NCBI GenBank assembly: GCA_963745835.1
Contig: CAVUZH010000013.1
Span: 96,001 to 160,000 of the forward strand
Length of the DNA stretch: 64,000 nucleotides
Reading direction: 5' to 3'
Source of the DNA: an uncultured delta proteobacterium
Lineage (GTDB): Bacteria; Desulfobacterota; Binatia; UBA9968
Under the pieces are notes generated by a model. It was not told where the DNA came from and made no database searches. It saw nothing but the letters and a program-made list of their open reading frames with translations. Of the stretch, positions 12,888 through 19,200 are shown piece after piece. Position 1 is the stretch's first letter, and every line of letters begins with the position of its first letter. The translations under genes were made by a program, and so were the position numbers.

Positions 12888-13073
12888 GTAAGAAACGTTC
12901 CTTAGCCGCGCAAAGTCAGCGGGTGGCGGGGTTCACGAGTTGGAGCATAATAGCAAAAGTGCCTAGTGTGTCAACAGAATTTGGCTCTAGAACGCTTGTC
13001 TTCATTGAAGTTACATCGTGAACTTGTTACCGTATGGTTCTTCCGAATAAGAATTCGCCTGACACTGGAGAAA

Positions 13074-14270
13074 ATGCTTCAAGTCAAATTCAACCGGTCC
13101 CACAATCAACTCGCTGCATCCTCGAATACTGCCAATCGATCATTGAAGGCAGATGATGCGTTGCTTCTTGTCGCCGCCAGTGAAGGCGACTCGAACATGC
13201 TCTATGCTGTGGGATTCTTTGTCCCGGATCCATTCATTTTTTTTCAGCACAAAAAAAAGAAGTACGTGGTGATGAGCGATCTCGAGCTTGATCGCGCAAA
13301 GCGACAGGCCACGGTGGACCAGGTGCTTTCGCTCTCTGATTATCAGAGAAAGCTGAGGAAGGCGGGCAGCCCTACGACAATGATCGGCATTCTCGAACTG
13401 CTGTTTCGCGAGCGCGGCATACGATCCCTGATGGTGCCGGCGAACTTTTCAGCGCTTTTGGCCGACCAGTTACGGAGCAAAGGCTTCAATTTGGAAGTTA
13501 TGCTAGATCCCTTTTTTCCTGAGCGTGAAATCAAACGCGCGCAGGAAGTGCGGCACATAACCGAGTCGCTGCGTGTGGCCAAATTGGGCCTCGATGCCGG
13601 CATCAGGATGCTCAAAAGGACCAAAGCCCGACGCGACGGGTACTTATATCTAAACGGCTCGAAGCTCACATCCGAAACACTGAAAACCGCCGTGAATACC
13701 ACGATTATGGCTCAAGGATGGCTGCCCAGCCACACGATCATTTCATCCGGTAATCAGTGTGTCGATCCTCATCATGAAGGAACCGGTCCGATCAAGGCGA
13801 ACACTTCGGTCATCTTCGATATCTTTCCCCGCTCGCAAAAGAACGGTTATTTTGGAGATCTCAGCCGGACGGTGGTGCGTGGACGAGCATCGGATAAGCT
13901 CAAGAAAATTTACGCGACTGTGCAGGCCGGACAAAAGATCGGCTTCGACCTGATTCGCGATGGACTCAATGGTAGAGAGATACATCAAAAGATTCTCGAT
14001 CTTTTTGCCCGTGAAGGTTTTCCCACCGGACAAATCAAAGGTCGCATGCAGGGATTCTTCCATGGCACGGGACACGGACTCGGTCTGGATATCCATGAGG
14101 CGCCTCGAATCGCGCCGGTCGATGCCACGCTCAAGAGCGGGCATGTGGTAACGGTAGAACCCGGACTTTATTACCTCGGTATTGGCGGCGTACGACTGGA
14201 AGATGTAGTGCTGGTCACCGACAAGGGCAATAAGAATCTCACCGACTGTCCTCAGTTTCTGGAAATCTAA
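13074..14270 (+). CDS. Xaa-Pro aminopeptidase (M24 family)
   Basis: Motifs PHH, DIFP, GYFGDLSRT, HGTGHGLGLDIHE, TVEPGLY and GVRLED. GGAG RBS before ATG 13074. Confidence 0.92.
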   Translation: MLQVKFNRSHNQLAASSNTANRSLKADDALLLVAASEGDSNMLYAVGFFVPDPFIFFQHKKKKYVVMSDLELDRAKRQATVDQVLSLSDYQRKLRKAGSPTTMIGILELLFRERGIRSLMVPANFSALLADQLRSKGFNLEVMLDPFFPEREIKRAQEVRHITESLRVAKLGLDAGIRMLKRTKARRDGYLYLNGSKLTSETLKTAVNTTIMAQGWLPSHTIISSGNQCVDPHHEGTGPIKANTSVIFDIFPRSQKNGYFGDLSRTVVRGRASDKLKKIYATVQAGQKIGFDLIRDGLNGREIHQKILDLFAREGFPTGQIKGRMQGFFHGTGHGLGLDIHEAPRIAPVDATLKSGHVVTVEPGLYYLGIGGVRLEDVVLVTDKGNKNLTDCPQFLEI

Positions 14271-14334
14271 ATCGATCTCTTACGCGGCCACCAGATTCTG
14301 CGCGAACTGCCCGATCTATAATCAGGATTGAATA

Positions 14335-15090
14335 ATGGAAGAAGCAAAGCAGATTGCCGAATGGCTTGACGCGCTGGACCGGCCCAACAAGCAGATGCTT
14401 CGCGCCGCGGTGGACGGTTTAATCGCGGCGTTGCCGGACTCACCTGAAACGGGCAAGAATTTAAAGGACCTGCTGCGCGATTCACAGCGAAGAAATCGCT
14501 GGCCTATCGCCTACATCCTCGCCCACTTGCCTCAACCACCTGCCGAATCATTGGAGATCCTGCTCGATGCTCTTGACGATTCTGACCCAGACGTGCGCTG
14601 GGCCGTTATCTTACTCTTGGCACGCTTGACGAAGCCACAAACGTCAGTAATGGAGCTTACAACATCCCTAATGGCCACCGGCACGGCGACGCAACGCCGC
14701 ATGGTCATCTATTATCTAAAAGAGTTGAAGCGTCAGAACGAAGCTGTTCGACAGGCGCTGTTATCCGCGCTCAACGATTCGGATCCCATGGTTAGAGTTG
14801 CGGCAGTGATCAGCTTGAAAGAACAGGATGTGGATTCGGACGGTAAAACAACTTTATTGGACTTGCTGATGCGCGATCCTGATGTTCGGGTACAGCATGC
14901 GGCGGCGATCACGCTCGCAAGCTTAGGGTCACCGTCCGAAGAATTTTTATCGGCTCTCGATCATGCCACGAAAAGTGCACAGGGGCCGTTGAAGAAGGCT
15001 GCCGTCGCCGCGCAGCGTATCCTCCAGGAAAAAAAAGAGGTCCGTCCCATTAGGCGACTGACGTCGCCGGTGGGACGGACCCCGAGTTAA
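14335..15090 (+). CDS. HEAT-repeat protein
   Basis: Repeated LDDSDPDVRWA / LNDSDPMVRVAA / LMRDPDVRVQHAA units. Confidence 0.85.
   Translation: MEEAKQIAEWLDALDRPNKQMLRAAVDGLIAALPDSPETGKNLKDLLRDSQRRNRWPIAYILAHLPQPPAESLEILLDALDDSDPDVRWAVILLLARLTKPQTSVMELTTSLMATGTATQRRMVIYYLKELKRQNEAVRQALLSALNDSDPMVRVAAVISLKEQDVDSDGKTTLLDLLMRDPDVRVQHAAAITLASLGSPSEEFLSALDHATKSAQGPLKKAAVAAQRILQEKKEVRPIRRLTSPVGRTPS
15029..15083 (-). terminator. Intrinsic terminator
   Basis: On the minus strand GGGGTCCGTCCCA pairs with TGGGACGGACCTC, enclosing a GGCGAC/GTCGCC hairpin, followed by T8 (15036-15029). Confidence 0.88.
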
Positions 15091-15156
15091 CTTCGGTAGA
15101 CTGAGGGGGATTGCTAGGCTTCAAGCTAGAATCCCCGTCAAAGATCCACTTGAAGC

Positions 15157-15201
15157 CTAAGTCTCAGTCACCTCGCAGACAAAACAATTATCATCAATCA
15201 T
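15157..15201 (-). CDS. Micro-ORF, 14 aa MIDDNCFVCEVTET
   Basis: ATG preceded by GAAAGGAGGTGGTCCAG-AC, ending in TAG at 15157-15159. Below the ORF-track length cutoff. Confidence 0.6.
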   Translation of the reverse strand: MIDDNCFVCEVTET

Positions 15202-15233
15202 GTCTGGACCACCTCCTTTCCCTGCTGATTTTT

Positions 15234-15262
15234 AGTTTAAGGAGCAAGGTGTCGGCTGTCAA
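15234..15262 (-). promoter_or_regulatory. Sigma70-type promoter
   Basis: TTGACA (15262-15257), 17-bp spacer, TAAACT (15239-15234). Confidence 0.8.
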
Positions 15263-15322
15263 CAGGGAAGTGTCGCACGCGGCCAATTTTCACACGCGGA
15301 TGAATCGCGAGGCGATAAAGAA

Positions 15323-16097
15323 CTATGCCGACTGCCAGCCGATGAAACTGATCTGGCGGCCGGTTTCTTTTTTTTCTCGTCGATATGAAAAAAATTCATC
15401 TTTGGCACAGCTAGTACACGGACCGACTCGAAAGATTTGGCTTTGAGGAATGCCGGCGCGATGCAGAATGGTTTCATTTAGATTACGTAAATGAAGGTAA
15501 CTCTTATTATCTCTGGTCTCAATTGAAGAAGTTGCGAGTTCAGCCCATTGTTCGATCAACGGCTGCGCTACATCACGACCGATCTCATAGCAACACGAGT
15601 CAATTGACGGGCCAAGGGCAACTTCCAGCTCCGAAGGCAACACACCATAATTTTCCAGAAAGAATTTGACTGTCTTTGCCGGCGATTCCTTTCAGGGTTC
15701 CACGCCAGCCGGCGTGAACGACCGCGACGATCTTCTGTTCCCGAGCCAGGAAAAGCATAGGCACGCAATCTGCTGTTAGGACCCCCAGAAAAGTATTCTG
15801 CTCGCGCGTCGCCATCCCGTCGGCCTCGCCGGCTTCTTTGAGGTGTGTGTCTTTGACCTCGATCAGGCAATCGCCATGAACCTGCCTCATAGTAACGATG
15901 CGGCCATCATGGATTCCAACGGCGAGCTTCATATCACAGACGTTCTGGCTGACGATCTTGGCATCGTCACCGACGCGATAGGAAACATTGAGCCCGGCAT
16001 AAGCTCCGACGCTTTTGCCACCCTGCCGCCCCATAAAGCCGTGCAGTAAACCTCTGTCGTTTTCCCACTGCGGGACTTTCAACCAGTTGATTTTCAT
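15323..16097 (-). CDS. pgeF: PgeF/YfiH (purine nucleoside phosphorylase, laccase-domain) protein; frameshift near 15670
   Basis: QVHG, ADG, LTADCVP and HAGWRG lie in ORF 15600-16133. GPSIDSCCYEIG, CTSC and FFSYRR lie in ORF 15323-15643. Confidence 0.9.
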
Positions 16098-16222
16098 ACC
16101 GGGTATTATGTTTGGATCGTCCGCGCGACGCAAGTCGATGAAGAAACCCCGGGCCAGTTATTCACTCTTGCATTGTGGCCCAATTTCGCCGAAATATACC
16201 CCGATAGCTTCGGCAGTGCTAC

Positions 16223-19200
16223 ATGACAAACGGACGATACATCGGCACGCTCAAACAAGCCGGCTTCTTCGCTTTTTTTTGTACCCAATTTCTCGGCGCC
16301 TTCAACGACAACTTTTATAAGATCGTCGTATCTCTGGTGGCGCTCAACGCCGCAAGCCCGCAAAGCGACAGCTTATATGTCGACCTGATCGCCTTCCTCT
16401 TTATCCTGCCTTCCGCGCTCTTCTCCGGCTATGCCGGCCATTTAGCGGATGTCTACAGCAAGCGCTCAATTCTTGTCGCGGTGAAGTGCTTCGAGATCGT
16501 GATCATGGGGATGGGGTTTGCGGCCTTTTTGTCGGGCTATGTCGAGCCTATGCTGGTCATCGTTTTTCTCATGGGCCTTCATTCAGCGTTCTTCAGCCCC
16601 GCGAAATACGCCATTCTGCCCGAGATGCTGCCCGAGACTGAACTCTCGCGCGGCAATGGCTTGTTGGAGATGAGCACCTTTATGGCGATCATCTTGGGAG
16701 TTTCTCTTGGCGGGGCGATTTACTCGATTTGGGAGGACCAGCTTCCCATGGTCGGTCTCATCATGATCGCCATCGCCGTACTCGGAACATTAGCCAGTTT
16801 GAAAATATCTCCGGTGCCCGCGTCGGGCTCGACAAAGAGTTTCAATCTCAATCCGTTCGGTGAAATCTGGCATGGCATAAAGCGGCTTTATCCCGATAGG
16901 CCGCTCCGCCTGACGGTGATTGGAATATCGTATTTTTGGTTCTTGGGAGCTTTGGTCCAGCTCGCTATGTTGTTTTTCGGTAAAGAATTGCTCGAGCTCG
17001 ATGAACTCCACATCAGCCTGTTAGGGACTTTCCTGGCCATTGGCATCGGCATCGGCAGTTTGGCGGCCGGAAAGCTATCCGGCGATAAGATCGAGCTCGG
17101 CCTCGTGCCTCTGGGTTCGATTTCGATGGGATTTTGTTTATTGCTTGTGTCGTATTCCGCATCATCCTATTTTTATACTTCGGCGTCTCTCGTTCTGCTG
17201 GGCTTTTCAGGCGGGCTCTTCGCGGTGCCGCTCAACGCGCTACTGCAACATCGAAGCGGTCGCGAGGAAAAAGGGCAACTGATCGCGACCAACAACTTTT
17301 TCAATACCATTGGCATTATTTTGGCTGCGGCCATTCACTGGGTGTTAAATAGCGGCCTTCAACTCTCGCCCGACTGGATCGTCTTTTTGATTGGAATACT
17401 CACCCTCATGGCCACGGCCATTGTCTTACTGGTTCTGCCCGACTATTTCGTGCGCCTCGTCGCCTGGTTATTGACGCACACGCTTTACCGAATACGGATT
17501 GCGGGCGAAGAAAATGCTCCCCTACGCAGTCCGGCGCTGTTGGTGTCAAATCATGTATCGTTTGCCGATGCCCTCCTGATCGGCGCGTGTCTGCCCGGTT
17601 TCGTTCGCTTCATGCTGCATCGCGATTACTATGAGAACCAATGGCTCAACTGGTTTTTCCGTTTGATGAAGGCGATTCCGATCCGGGCAACCCATCGCCG
17701 CGACGTCGTCAATTCTCTTAAGCAAGCTCGCCAGGAGCTCGAGGCCGGACACGTCGTTTGCATTTTTGCCGAAGGGGCAATCACCCGCACGGGCCACATT
17801 CTTCCATTCAAGCGCGGCTTCGAAAAAATTGTCGAGGGCACGGGCGCGCCGATTATCCCGGTTCACTTGGACCAAGTCTGGGGCAGTGTTTTTAGCTTTC
17901 ATGGCGGGCGATTTTTCTGGAAATGGCCCAAGCTCTTTCCCTATCCGGTCACAGTCTCCTTTGGAAAACCGCTGCCGGCCAATTCGACCGCAAACGAAGT
18001 CCGCCAGAACGTCCTGGAACTCGCCAGCGAAGCGGTGCGGTATCGCCGCCAACCGGCCGATTTGTTGCCCGCCAAATTCGTTCAGATGGCTAAACGTCGA
18101 TGGTTTTCCTTCTGTATGGCAGACACCACCGGCACCGAACTTACTTTCGGCAAGGCGTTGATCGGCAGCATGATGCTGTCCCGCTGGGTGGGCGAGCATT
18201 GCCAGGAAGACAGGATGGTAGGGGTCATGCTCCCGGCTTCGGTCGGTGGCGCGCTGGCGAACATCGCGATCATGTTGGCGGGGAAGGTGCCCGTAAACCT
18301 CAATTTCACTGCCGGGCAAGATGCAATGTTATCAGCCATCAAGCAATGCGGCATCAAAACAATTCTGACTTCGCGGCTATTTCTGACCAAGGCAAGCCTG
18401 GACGAGATGCCCGGAATGGTTTTTCTCGAGGAAGTTAGAAAGACATTCACTGCCGCGCTAAAAATAGTAACCGCCGCCAAAGCAGCGTTGTTGCCGGCGG
18501 GTTACTTGAACCGAAACGTGACGAATAATGCGGCGCCTGAAGATCTCGCTACAGTGATTTTTTCTAGTGGCAGCACCGGCGCCCCTAAGGGAGTGATGCT
18601 CTCCCATTCTAATATCCTCTCCAACGTTGAAGGTATCTGCCAGGTAATTCAGTTCACGAACAAAGACCGCATCATGGGGATATTGCCTTTGTTTCACTCA
18701 TTTGGTTTCACTGCGACAATTTGGCTGCCGCTCCTGGCAGGCTTTGGCGTGGTTTACCATCCAAACCCGATGGACGCCAAAACCATAGGAGAAACCGTGC
18801 AGAAGCATCAGGCTACCTTGCTGATCAGCACGCCAACTTTTTACGCGGGTTACCTGAAGCGCTGTAGTCCTGAGGAATTTTCCAGCCTGCGCTATGCTAT
18901 CGCCGGCGCAGAGAAGTTACGCGAACAGATCACCCGAGGTTACAAAGAAAAATATGGAATTGATCTGCTCGAAGGCTACGGCTGCACAGAACTCGCGCCG
19001 GTGGTCTCGGTTAATATTCCGGACGTAATCGACGGCGACGAAAAACAGATCGGTCACAAGCCGGGTAGCGTCGGACATCCCATTCCGGGGATTGCGGTTA
19101 AGGTCATCGATCCTGACACGGAGCTGCCCTTAGCCTGCGGGCAAGAAGGTTTGCTTCTCGTTAAAGGCCCCAATTGCATGCTCGGCTATCTCCACCAGCC

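Follow-up and report, generated by a model that had tools for sequence, protein, structure and literature searches.

What kind of gene, if any, underlies a short minus-strand element whose most conspicuous feature is a long complement of the 3' end of 16S rRNA? The element occupies positions 15262-15029 of the window, a 64,000-nucleotide stretch of DNA from an uncultured delta proteobacterium of the Binatia, UBA9968 (assembly GCA_963745835.1, contig CAVUZH010000013.1, positions 96,001 to 160,000 of the forward strand). An earlier note on this DNA had proposed a dedicated ribosome-binding RNA or micro-mRNA. The analysis described here indicates that the element is likely a small mRNA of the rre type that represents, within the Binatia, the RNA family listed in Rfam as Ms_IGR-5.

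The rre type was described in 2016 in alpha-proteobacteria (Hahn et al., RNA Biol 2016, PMC5711450; this and the later statements on rre genes draw on passages of that paper). The element is not a new kind of RNA, but a distant new member of the rre / Ms_IGR-5 type of ribosome-bound micro-mRNA. What is new is the presence of the same RNA across at least seven phylum-level groups, with a conserved frame whose last sense codons lie in a covarying helix, P1. The rre genes were thought to be confined to alpha-proteobacteria, and the same design is now found in an uncultured soil lineage.

Predicted pairing with the 16S rRNA tail

The 3' end of the 16S gene of this genome reads ...CTGGATCACCTCCTTTCT. 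All 17 positions of the tract ahead of the open reading frame (ORF), GAAAGGAGGTGGTCCAG, pair with this tail, one of them as G-U, which confirms against the genome's own 16S rRNA the pairing that the earlier note had proposed. When the preceding G is added, the tract gives 18 pairs. The longest perfect Watson-Crick run is 11 nt. The predicted energy of the duplex between the tract and the tail is -31.6 kcal/mol vs. -8.7 kcal/mol for GGAGG alone. With the G-U counted, at least 16 nt spanning the Shine-Dalgarno (SD) sequence are complementary to the organism's own 16S 3' end, as in the rre genes. A cryo-electron microscopy study of Staphylococcus aureus (2026) reports that the SD helix can be lengthened by the bases immediately 3' of GGAGG, where G-U can take the place of A-U (PMC13009471), which makes real pairing by the start-proximal half of the tract plausible.

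It was also considered whether the tract resembles 16S by chance or is what remains of a degraded rRNA operon. The 13-mer core AAGGAGGTGRTCC has two exact sites in the 7.28-Mb genome, the element and the reverse complement of the 16S gene, and the reversed control pattern had no exact match of such kind in the genome. With one mismatch allowed, 23 sites were found in the whole genome vs. 21 for the control. Moreover, the likeness is to the complement of the 16S end, not a copy of it, and the element has its own promoter, ORF, fold and terminator, all of them conserved. The element is not a chance match to 16S, and this explanation is refuted.

The complement is retained in relatives. Homologues reduced to AGGAGG, the outcome that was to count against the proposal, were not what was found, as the invariant complement GAAAGGAGGTGGT is intact in 50 of the 50 relatives read. 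The tract length of 17 nt holds in the window but not across the order, where the last three bases (CAG) are not conserved, being lost in one family, and the conserved complement is R-GAAAGGAGGTGGTC, about 15 nt. In three actinobacterial carriers the 16S tail is identical, GGATCACCTCCTTTCT, and the actinobacterial GGGAAGGAGGTGGTCC pairs with it over its full length, G-U included, as judged by eye. Additionally, a second SD-like word, GAGGUG(G/A), is present late in the ORF, 6 nt before the last sense codon, and GAGGUGA pairs with the 16S tail at -13.5 kcal/mol.

Distribution of the element

A similarity search was run over the 61 genomes of the window's order, with two unpublished genomes included in the counts; public records list these genomes as Candidatus Binatia or under older names such as "Deltaproteobacteria bacterium". 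The element was found in 57 of the 61, nearly always as a single copy, and in all 37 that are of high quality. Every one of the 45 relatives with enough flanking sequence has a promoter with a TTGAC-type -35, a spacer of 17-18 nt and a TAnnnT -10, placed 14-16 nt ahead of AAGGAGG. A run of four or more T is likewise present at the expected 3' end (45/45). The most strongly conserved portion is the tract together with the ORF. In alignment A1, which consists of 32 sequences of the window's family, the AGCAG of the leader is invariant.

The two most conserved blocks were combined into a search pattern. Run against a single genome of each species, this pattern returned at least 119 stretches, which together with the relatives make 159 distinct elements. 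Among the matches listed, the carriers belong to Binatia, Actinomycetota, Ignavibacteriales, Zixibacteria, Blastocatellia, Eisenbacteria and Leptospira weilii. The listed carriers within Actinomycetota are Mycobacteriaceae, Nocardia, Saccharopolyspora, Streptosporangiaceae and Actinomadura, and further Actinocorallia, Nakamurella, Frankiales, Propionibacteriales and Streptomyces. As judged from these sequences, the same RNA is present in at least seven phylum-level groups. A contig of a metagenome-assembled genome (MAG) labelled Gammaproteobacteria (L088) carries an element of mycobacterial type (MVDLWTCEVAAS); the label is probably a binning or labelling error, and this contig was excluded from the group count.

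Reading frame and peptide

An ATG, GTG or TTG lies in frame 7-13 nt past GGAGG in 156 of the 159 distinct elements. The length of the ORF varies from 11 to 16 codons, and the differences are whole codons. Among the 155 such elements with a stop codon, the stop is TAG in 150, TAA in 4 and TGA in 1. When start codons 5-13 nt past GGAGG were counted in any frame over 109 distinct stretches, 106 of the 110 found were in frame 0, one in frame 1 and three in frame 2. Codon 2 varies at its third base alone (ATA 10, ATT 8) and encodes Ile throughout, and the Cys codon alternates between TGT and TGC. The peptide is short, acidic and Cys-containing, and ends in C-E-V-[A/T]-x-x. A conserved small ORF is found beside the tract, as in the rre genes, and these features indicate that it is a real conserved reading frame. 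In its 3' half the ORF is evidently under RNA constraint as well, to judge from the nucleotides kept in the codons.

The elements with an exceptional start come from Ignavibacteriales (L080), Zixibacteria (L166) and Eisenbacteria (L143). In two of them ATT stands in place of the start codon and may serve as a non-canonical start; the third has no in-frame start codon and a shorter ORF end. Four peptide words were searched in papers, three without a match and the fourth with unrelated matches among those listed.

Fold of the RNA

Between the stop codon of the ORF and the terminator lie about 60 nt of paired RNA. The 206-nt RNA has a predicted folding energy of -93.8 kcal/mol (z = -6.3), and none of 200 shuffled sequences folded equally well. 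Helix P1 joins the last five sense codons to a strand just ahead of the terminator (GGUGACUGAG with CUCAGUCUACC in the window). In A1, GGUGRCUGAG pairs with CUCAGYC(C)ACC, and 99% of the cells are paired. Across 139 distinct elements of all phyla, the distal pair beside CUG/CAG is CG in 63, AU in 33, UG in 15, UA in 3 and GC in 2. This position is paired in 116 of the 139 vs. 66 in shuffles, and the next one in 98 vs. 64; the rows are related, and these counts are to be taken as support rather than as a probability.

Helix P2 begins at the G of the stop codon. Its pairing in A1 amounts to 96.5%, and both sides have changed in three of its pairs (AU 17 / GC 15 at columns 82 and 111, for example). 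Helix P3, in which GGGGAUUC pairs with the downstream GAAUCCCC, is 89.5% paired with two pairs changed on both sides. A rival helix joins GGGGAUUC to the upstream GGAUC (UA 20, UG 6 and CG 5 at columns 89 and 102). The helices P2 and P3 cross, with a linker of 3 nt between them, and are probably exclusive or partly co-existing. A simultaneous classical P2/P3 pseudoknot was rejected, as the linker looks too short to span a 10-bp stem, a matter of geometric reasoning rather than computation. By eye, P2 and P3 form two simple adjacent hairpins in the second family of the order.

A further helix, P0, is tentative. RNAalifold pairs columns 7-10, in the leader, with columns 54-57, at the Cys codon. 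In other phyla, the leader base and the third base of the Cys codon occur as CAC/TGT 32, CGC/TGC 4, CAC/TGC 3 and CGC/TGT 1, so that the 40 distinct combinations comprise 36 Watson-Crick pairs, one wobble and three mismatches. Two other candidates were dropped. The pairing of the SD with the U-tail in the single-sequence fold has a partner that is not conserved in relatives, and a hairpin CAGAC/GUCUG near the start of the ORF needs GUC at codon 7, where most relatives have GAC.

The motif consisting of an AAUYCC-like word, 1-8 nt, CAG, 1-5 nt and ACC or UCC is present in 148 of the 159 elements and is the most widely kept motif after the SD. The possibility was therefore weighed that the element is a base-pairing regulatory small RNA (sRNA), whose C-rich junction AAUCCCCCUC and 3' domain act on other mRNAs, for example at their SD regions, while the ORF and the giant SD gate or stabilize what would be a dual-function RNA. 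The homologues are filed as sRNAs in Rfam, and the nucleotide conservation in the 3' half of the ORF exceeds what the peptide needs. However, no target came to light, no search aimed at one having been made; the C-run is paired in P3 in the fold supported by covariation, and the frame, start codon and stop position are conserved, which would be needless for a pure riboregulator. This explanation is considered rather unlikely.

A precedent for a 5'-proximal SD that stabilizes an RNA is the STAB-SD, which is said to be a 5' stabilizer of the cryIIIA mRNA of Bacillus thuringiensis, where the SD-like GAAAGGAGG near the 5' end reportedly binds the 30S subunit without a normal gene start. The SD-like word near the 5' end is the point in common with the element. 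In contrast to the element, the STAB-SD reportedly lies in the long 5' untranslated region of a large gene, with no conserved micro-ORF after it. A further difference is that the half-life of rreB is shortened, not lengthened, by translation.

Parts of the element in the window

The coordinates of the parts are listed in Table 1. The anatomy given by the earlier note was confirmed point by point: the minus-strand promoter (15262-15234), the start codon 2 nt after the tract, the 14-codon ORF, the structured 3' region and the GC-rich terminator with T8 were all recovered. The promoter was the only sigma-70-like site found by a promoter scan of positions 14000-16500. The ATG is at 15201-15199, separated from the tract by AC. 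The terminator was absent from the output of a simple terminator scan because its loop exceeds the length that the scan allows. The predicted transcript of about 200 nt has its own sigma-70-type promoter, its own terminator and no same-strand gene downstream, like the stand-alone transcripts of the rre type.

Table 1. Parts of the element (coordinates are window positions; all parts are on the minus strand)
Feature	Position	Strand	Remark
-35 hexamer TTGACA	15262-15257	minus	17-nt spacer to the -10
-10 hexamer TAAACT	15239-15234	minus	promoter matches 10/12 positions
5' leader CAGCAGG, inferred	15221..15227	minus	start near 15227/15226 predicted from distance to the -10
Complement of 16S rRNA 3' tail (extended SD), 17 nt, GAAAGGAGGTGGTCCAG	15220-15204	minus	one G-U
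Small ORF, 14 codons, MIDDNCFVCEVTET	15157..15201	minus	stop TAG at 15159-15157
Helix P0, tentative	15225-15222 with 15178-15175	minus	leader GCAG with CUGC at the Cys codon; 4 bp
Helix P1, 5' strand GGUGACUGAG	15163..15172	minus	within the last five sense codons; contains GAGGUG
Helix P1, 3' strand CUCAGUCUACC	15095..15105	minus	just ahead of the terminator
Helix P2, 5' strand	15148..15157	minus	begins at G of the stop codon
Helix P2, 3' strand	15117..15126	minus	from alignment A1
Helix P3, 5' strand GGGGAUU	15130..15136	minus	rival partner GGAUC at 15147-15143
Helix P3, 3' strand	15106..15112	minus	doubles as the cross-phylum junction motif AAUYCC before the P1 3' strand
Intrinsic terminator	15029..15083	minus	13-bp stem with inner hairpin (15083-15037), then T8/U8 (15036-15029); single-sequence fold

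Relation to Rfam families

At gathering thresholds, the whole window gave no match in Rfam. At the level of E-values, the best match to the element was RF02471, Ms_IGR-5 ("Actinobacteria sRNA"), with 23.7 bits and E = 7.6e-4 over a 203-nt stretch, and the alignment covers model positions 1-184 of 184. The consensus of this family reads GGAAGGAgGugGuCc ... UGUGAGGUGgCug ... AAUuCCccGcAGuCACC. When the model was scored on elements fetched by the pattern, the scores formed a gradient: 175.8 bits in Mycobacterium, 109.1 in Actinocorallia, 63.7 in Streptomyces, 54.9 in Eisenbacteria and 47.5 in Ignavibacteriales (the last two, from outside the actinobacteria, also pass the cut-off of 45), then 40.3 in the second family of the window's order, 37.7 in Zixibacteria, 36.0 in an unclassified bacterial MAG (L070), 33.8 in Blastocatellia and 24.7 in Leptospira. 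The leader, tract, ORF end and P1 are common to all the scored elements, as is the junction word AAUYCC that precedes CAG..ACC.

The order of the parts is the same in Ms_IGR-5 and in the window RNA: an ACAC/GCAG leader, AAGGAGGUGGUC, a short ORF ending in UGY-GAG-GUG-RCU, P1, the AAUYCC junction and a strong terminal hairpin. The two differ in the middle domain, which is of another length and shape, and in the Rfam consensus structure, where the SD is paired with the end of the ORF and P1 is absent. Ms_IGR-5 reportedly originates from an Hfq pull-down study in Mycobacterium smegmatis. Passages of later papers report its expression in Streptomyces lividans and S. avermitilis (PMC8079986, PMC8780764), and homologues have ribosome footprints in Mycobacterium abscessus and M. 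smegmatis (PMC4974804). The passages found on Ms_IGR-5 mention neither an mRNA nature nor a 16S complement, and those on Ms_IGR-5 and CC2171 make no tie to the rre genes or to a peptide; the original Ms_IGR-5 paper and the supplements lay outside this search.

The second Rfam match was RF01867, CC2171, at 16.1 bits vs. a cut-off of 75. Of this model, the 5' tract and the terminator alone align well to the element. The CC2171 consensus starts with GAAAGGAGGUGAUCCAGUG; the perfect 17-mer GAAAGGAGGUGAUCCAG stands at its beginning and is followed by UG, and a closing helix links the early ORF with the region before the terminator, all of which is like the window RNA. Unlike the latter, it has no C-E-V motif and no AAUYCC junction. 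On the reverse complement of the genome's 16S 3' end (G000:C1:32439-32487, L174) the CC2171 model scored 16.0 bits, as against 16.1 at the element, indicating that its 5' part is essentially a word against the 16S tail. CC2171 is expressed in Caulobacter and in Methylorubrum, in the latter by Northern blot (bioRxiv 10.1101/2022.01.24.477521). The literature passages found on this Caulobacter sRNA give neither a function nor a condition. CC2171 is probably the rre gene of the Caulobacterales, although the two names are unlinked in the passages found.

The models for tmRNA, 6S, SRP, RNase P and riboswitches did not match the element, in agreement with the earlier note. Its view that no described family is involved does not hold, given the full-length match to Ms_IGR-5 below threshold and the architecture shared with the rre genes and CC2171. 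At least two of the "sRNA" families of Rfam are probably tiny mRNAs. A chain of intermediates now ties the rre design to an sRNA of the tractable organisms M. smegmatis and Streptomyces. The literatures on rre and on Ms_IGR-5 are thereby linked, and an orphan observation becomes a testable question across phyla.

Comparison with the rre mRNAs

The nearest analogue that has been studied is rreB of Bradyrhizobium japonicum, an mRNA of 165 nt in which a tract of 17 nt is perfectly complementary to the 16S end and the ORF has 14 codons (PMC5711450). The rreB RNA was located mostly in the ribosome pellet and on 30S subunits, for which the 5' extension of its SD is needed. It is weakly translated, owing to the tract and the GUG start, and removal of the start codon lengthened its half-life about fourfold. 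The synthetic RreB peptide was unstructured, RreB shares no peptide similarity with RreR, and analogues were reported in four alpha-proteobacterial orders only (PMC5711450). In the words of Hahn et al., the function of the rre genes "remains elusive" (PMC5711450). A literature search on rreB and rreR from 2016 on returned no follow-up study among the matches listed.

The window RNA resembles rreB, and rreR of Rhodobacterales, in several respects. Each has its own promoter and terminator for a stand-alone RNA (predicted in the window) of about 165-200 nt, each is complementary to the 16S 3' tail over 16-17 nt including the SD, and each has a small ORF of 14-18 codons at or just past the tract, that of the window having 14 codons as in rreB. 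In five relatives of the window element (L036, L038, L039, L040 and L167) a GUG start overlaps the tract by its first base, as in the rre genes. Like the rre genes, the element is kept within a clade in a context that is not conserved between clades. The differences are that the phylum of the window is not alpha-proteobacterial, that most members of the window type start with ATG or TTG 2-6 nt past the tract, and that their peptide has the motif C-E-V-[A/T]. The tract of the window has a mid-tract G-U, and would be missed by the BLASTN search for 16-17 perfect matches of the rre authors. The likeness is one of architecture.

Both descriptions given by the earlier note, ribosome-binding RNA and micro-mRNA, fit the element, whose frame is conserved and whose analogue rreB resides on the 30S subunit via its 17-nt tract. 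The specific functions that had been suggested were to act as a stoichiometric 30S trap, as an RNA for hibernation or quality control, or as a factor for 16S 3'-end maturation. These could draw on the duplex, which spans the whole free tail, and on the binding of rreB to 30S. However, a 20-fold overproduction of the ribosome-binding form of rreB left the growth of Bradyrhizobium unchanged, and Hahn et al. judged ribosomes to be far more abundant than the rreB RNA (PMC5711450). Furthermore, each genome has a single gene copy, a trap does not need a conserved reading frame, and no ribosome-biogenesis gene was among the neighbours checked. These functions are unsupported and very unlikely.

The following points weigh against the assignment of the element to the rre / Ms_IGR-5 type. 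The 23.7 bits obtained with RF02471 lie below its gathering score of 45. The C-E-V motif was built into the pattern that fetched the distant members and proves nothing for the rows so obtained. Within the C-E-V end, the codons GAG, GUG and RCU are invariant at synonymous sites, so that the conservation of this part of the peptide could be due to RNA constraint alone. Single-base codon differences, synonymous vs. non-synonymous, number 159 to 311, a mild skew, and 3 of the 159 elements have no canonical in-frame start. In even samples, the exact pattern was found in 2 of 301 genomes of the window's phylum, both of its own family, and in 2 of 151 genomes of the phylum of an actinobacterial carrier; these counts mean not found in the genomes searched and are too strict to give prevalence, and the rarity points either to a patchy spread or to a drift of most relatives beyond the pattern. 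For this RNA, what is proposed on 30S binding, translation and decay is taken from rreB, which has an unlike peptide and an unlike 3' fold. Moreover, the RNA-library contigs that cover the window copy (see below) cannot prove transcription, strand or ends, and such libraries may contain DNA.

Proposed mechanism

On the reading of the element as an rre-type small mRNA, a transcript of about 200 nt would run from the sigma-70-type promoter to the terminator. The tract of 17-18 nt, about 6 nt from the inferred 5' end, would pair with the entire single-stranded 16S tail and, as shown for rreB, may tether the 30S subunit far more tightly than a normal SD. With the start codon 0-6 nt past the tract, initiation would be possible, while release from the tract would be slow and translation weak, again by analogy with rreB. 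The ribosome would then read a frame of 11-16 codons, the last five sense codons of which form a strand of P1, with the stop at the foot of P2. Since the end of the ORF lies in P1 and the stop in P2, translation must unfold the 3' domain, and with the late codons in P0 and P1, these two helices and the foot of P2 must be open by the time a ribosome arrives at the stop. Translation would thus exclude a folded 3' domain and vice versa, each round unfolding it. As in rreB, translation probably sets the lifetime of the RNA. The GAGGUG(G/A) in the ORF could hold the terminating ribosome. The products would be a short acidic Cys peptide (...C-E-V-[A/T]-x-x) and an RNA level that depends on the ribosome.

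UAG is read by release factor 1 (RF1) alone. A more far-reaching and quite unlikely proposal is that Ms_IGR-5, the Binatia RNA, rre and CC2171 form one ancient pan-bacterial class of ribosome-gated RNA switches. The giant SD would load a single 30S subunit, and the nascent C-E-V-[A/T]-x-x, the GAGGUG and the UAG would hold the ribosome at termination. The pause would keep P1 and P2 open and flip the a:b / b:c helices, and the RNA would report the state of the 16S tail or RF1-dependent termination via its exposed C-rich 3' domain or its own decay. The tract G-U, the C-E-V-[A/T] end, the UAG stop, P1 and the rival helix pair can each be mutated singly.

Genomic context and possible expression

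A pgeF/YfiH-like gene is upstream of the element on the same strand. Downstream, a HEAT-repeat protein (14335-15090) and an M24 peptidase (12966-14270) are encoded convergently on the plus strand. The HEAT-repeat ORF runs about 60 nt into the terminator of the element on the opposite strand, and the two genes therefore share their 3' ends. The pgeF and HEAT-repeat genes likewise flank the element in two relatives of the order (L034 and L041), as judged by eye. The pgeF gene is upstream on the same strand in the window and in these two relatives but convergent downstream in a third relative (L044), also by eye.

A short ORF followed by alternative helices (a:b vs. b:c) and a terminator looks attenuator-like, and a role of the element as leader peptide or attenuator of a gene downstream was therefore considered. 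However, as the earlier note had stated, no minus-strand gene is present past the terminator within the window. A convergent gene comes after the element in the inspected loci of the order, and the neighbours in other phyla differ, as judged by eye. The rre genes too have a context that is not conserved between clades, with no conserved context outside one family (PMC5711450). The attenuator explanation is largely refuted and retains hardly any probability, and its dismissal in the earlier note is borne out. Synteny gave no lead as a clue to function in the loci inspected. In Actinocorallia (L111) and Sinosporangium (L123), the element lies between a divergent Fur-like ORF and a convergent DUF1794/nitrobindin-like ORF, by eye.

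The pgeF/YfiH-like gene (Pfam Cu-oxidase_4; 15323-16133, minus strand) is split over two reading frames. The piece at 15600-16133 corresponds to profile positions 2-128 and the piece at 15323-15643 to positions 140-237. The split reflects either a frameshift or a mistake in the assembly.

Among public sequencing runs, 24 contain part of a 501-nt stretch that includes the element, and 18 of these are RNA libraries from soil or rhizosphere. Four runs from four studies were examined, and contigs over the element were present in all four soil or rhizosphere RNA libraries, a hint that the window copy is expressed. Positions left uncovered in these four, and the small shares of the other runs, carry no weight as evidence. 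One contig of 272 nt covers 15030-15300 and has one end within the U-run, which is a weak hint of an RNA end. In each of two further cases, from two studies, a contig breaks off at the first base of the tract (15220 and 15219), beside letters that we take to be Illumina adapter. A start placed by the -10 hexamer would be 6-7 nt upstream of these stops, which may mark a 5' end produced by processing where the tract begins.

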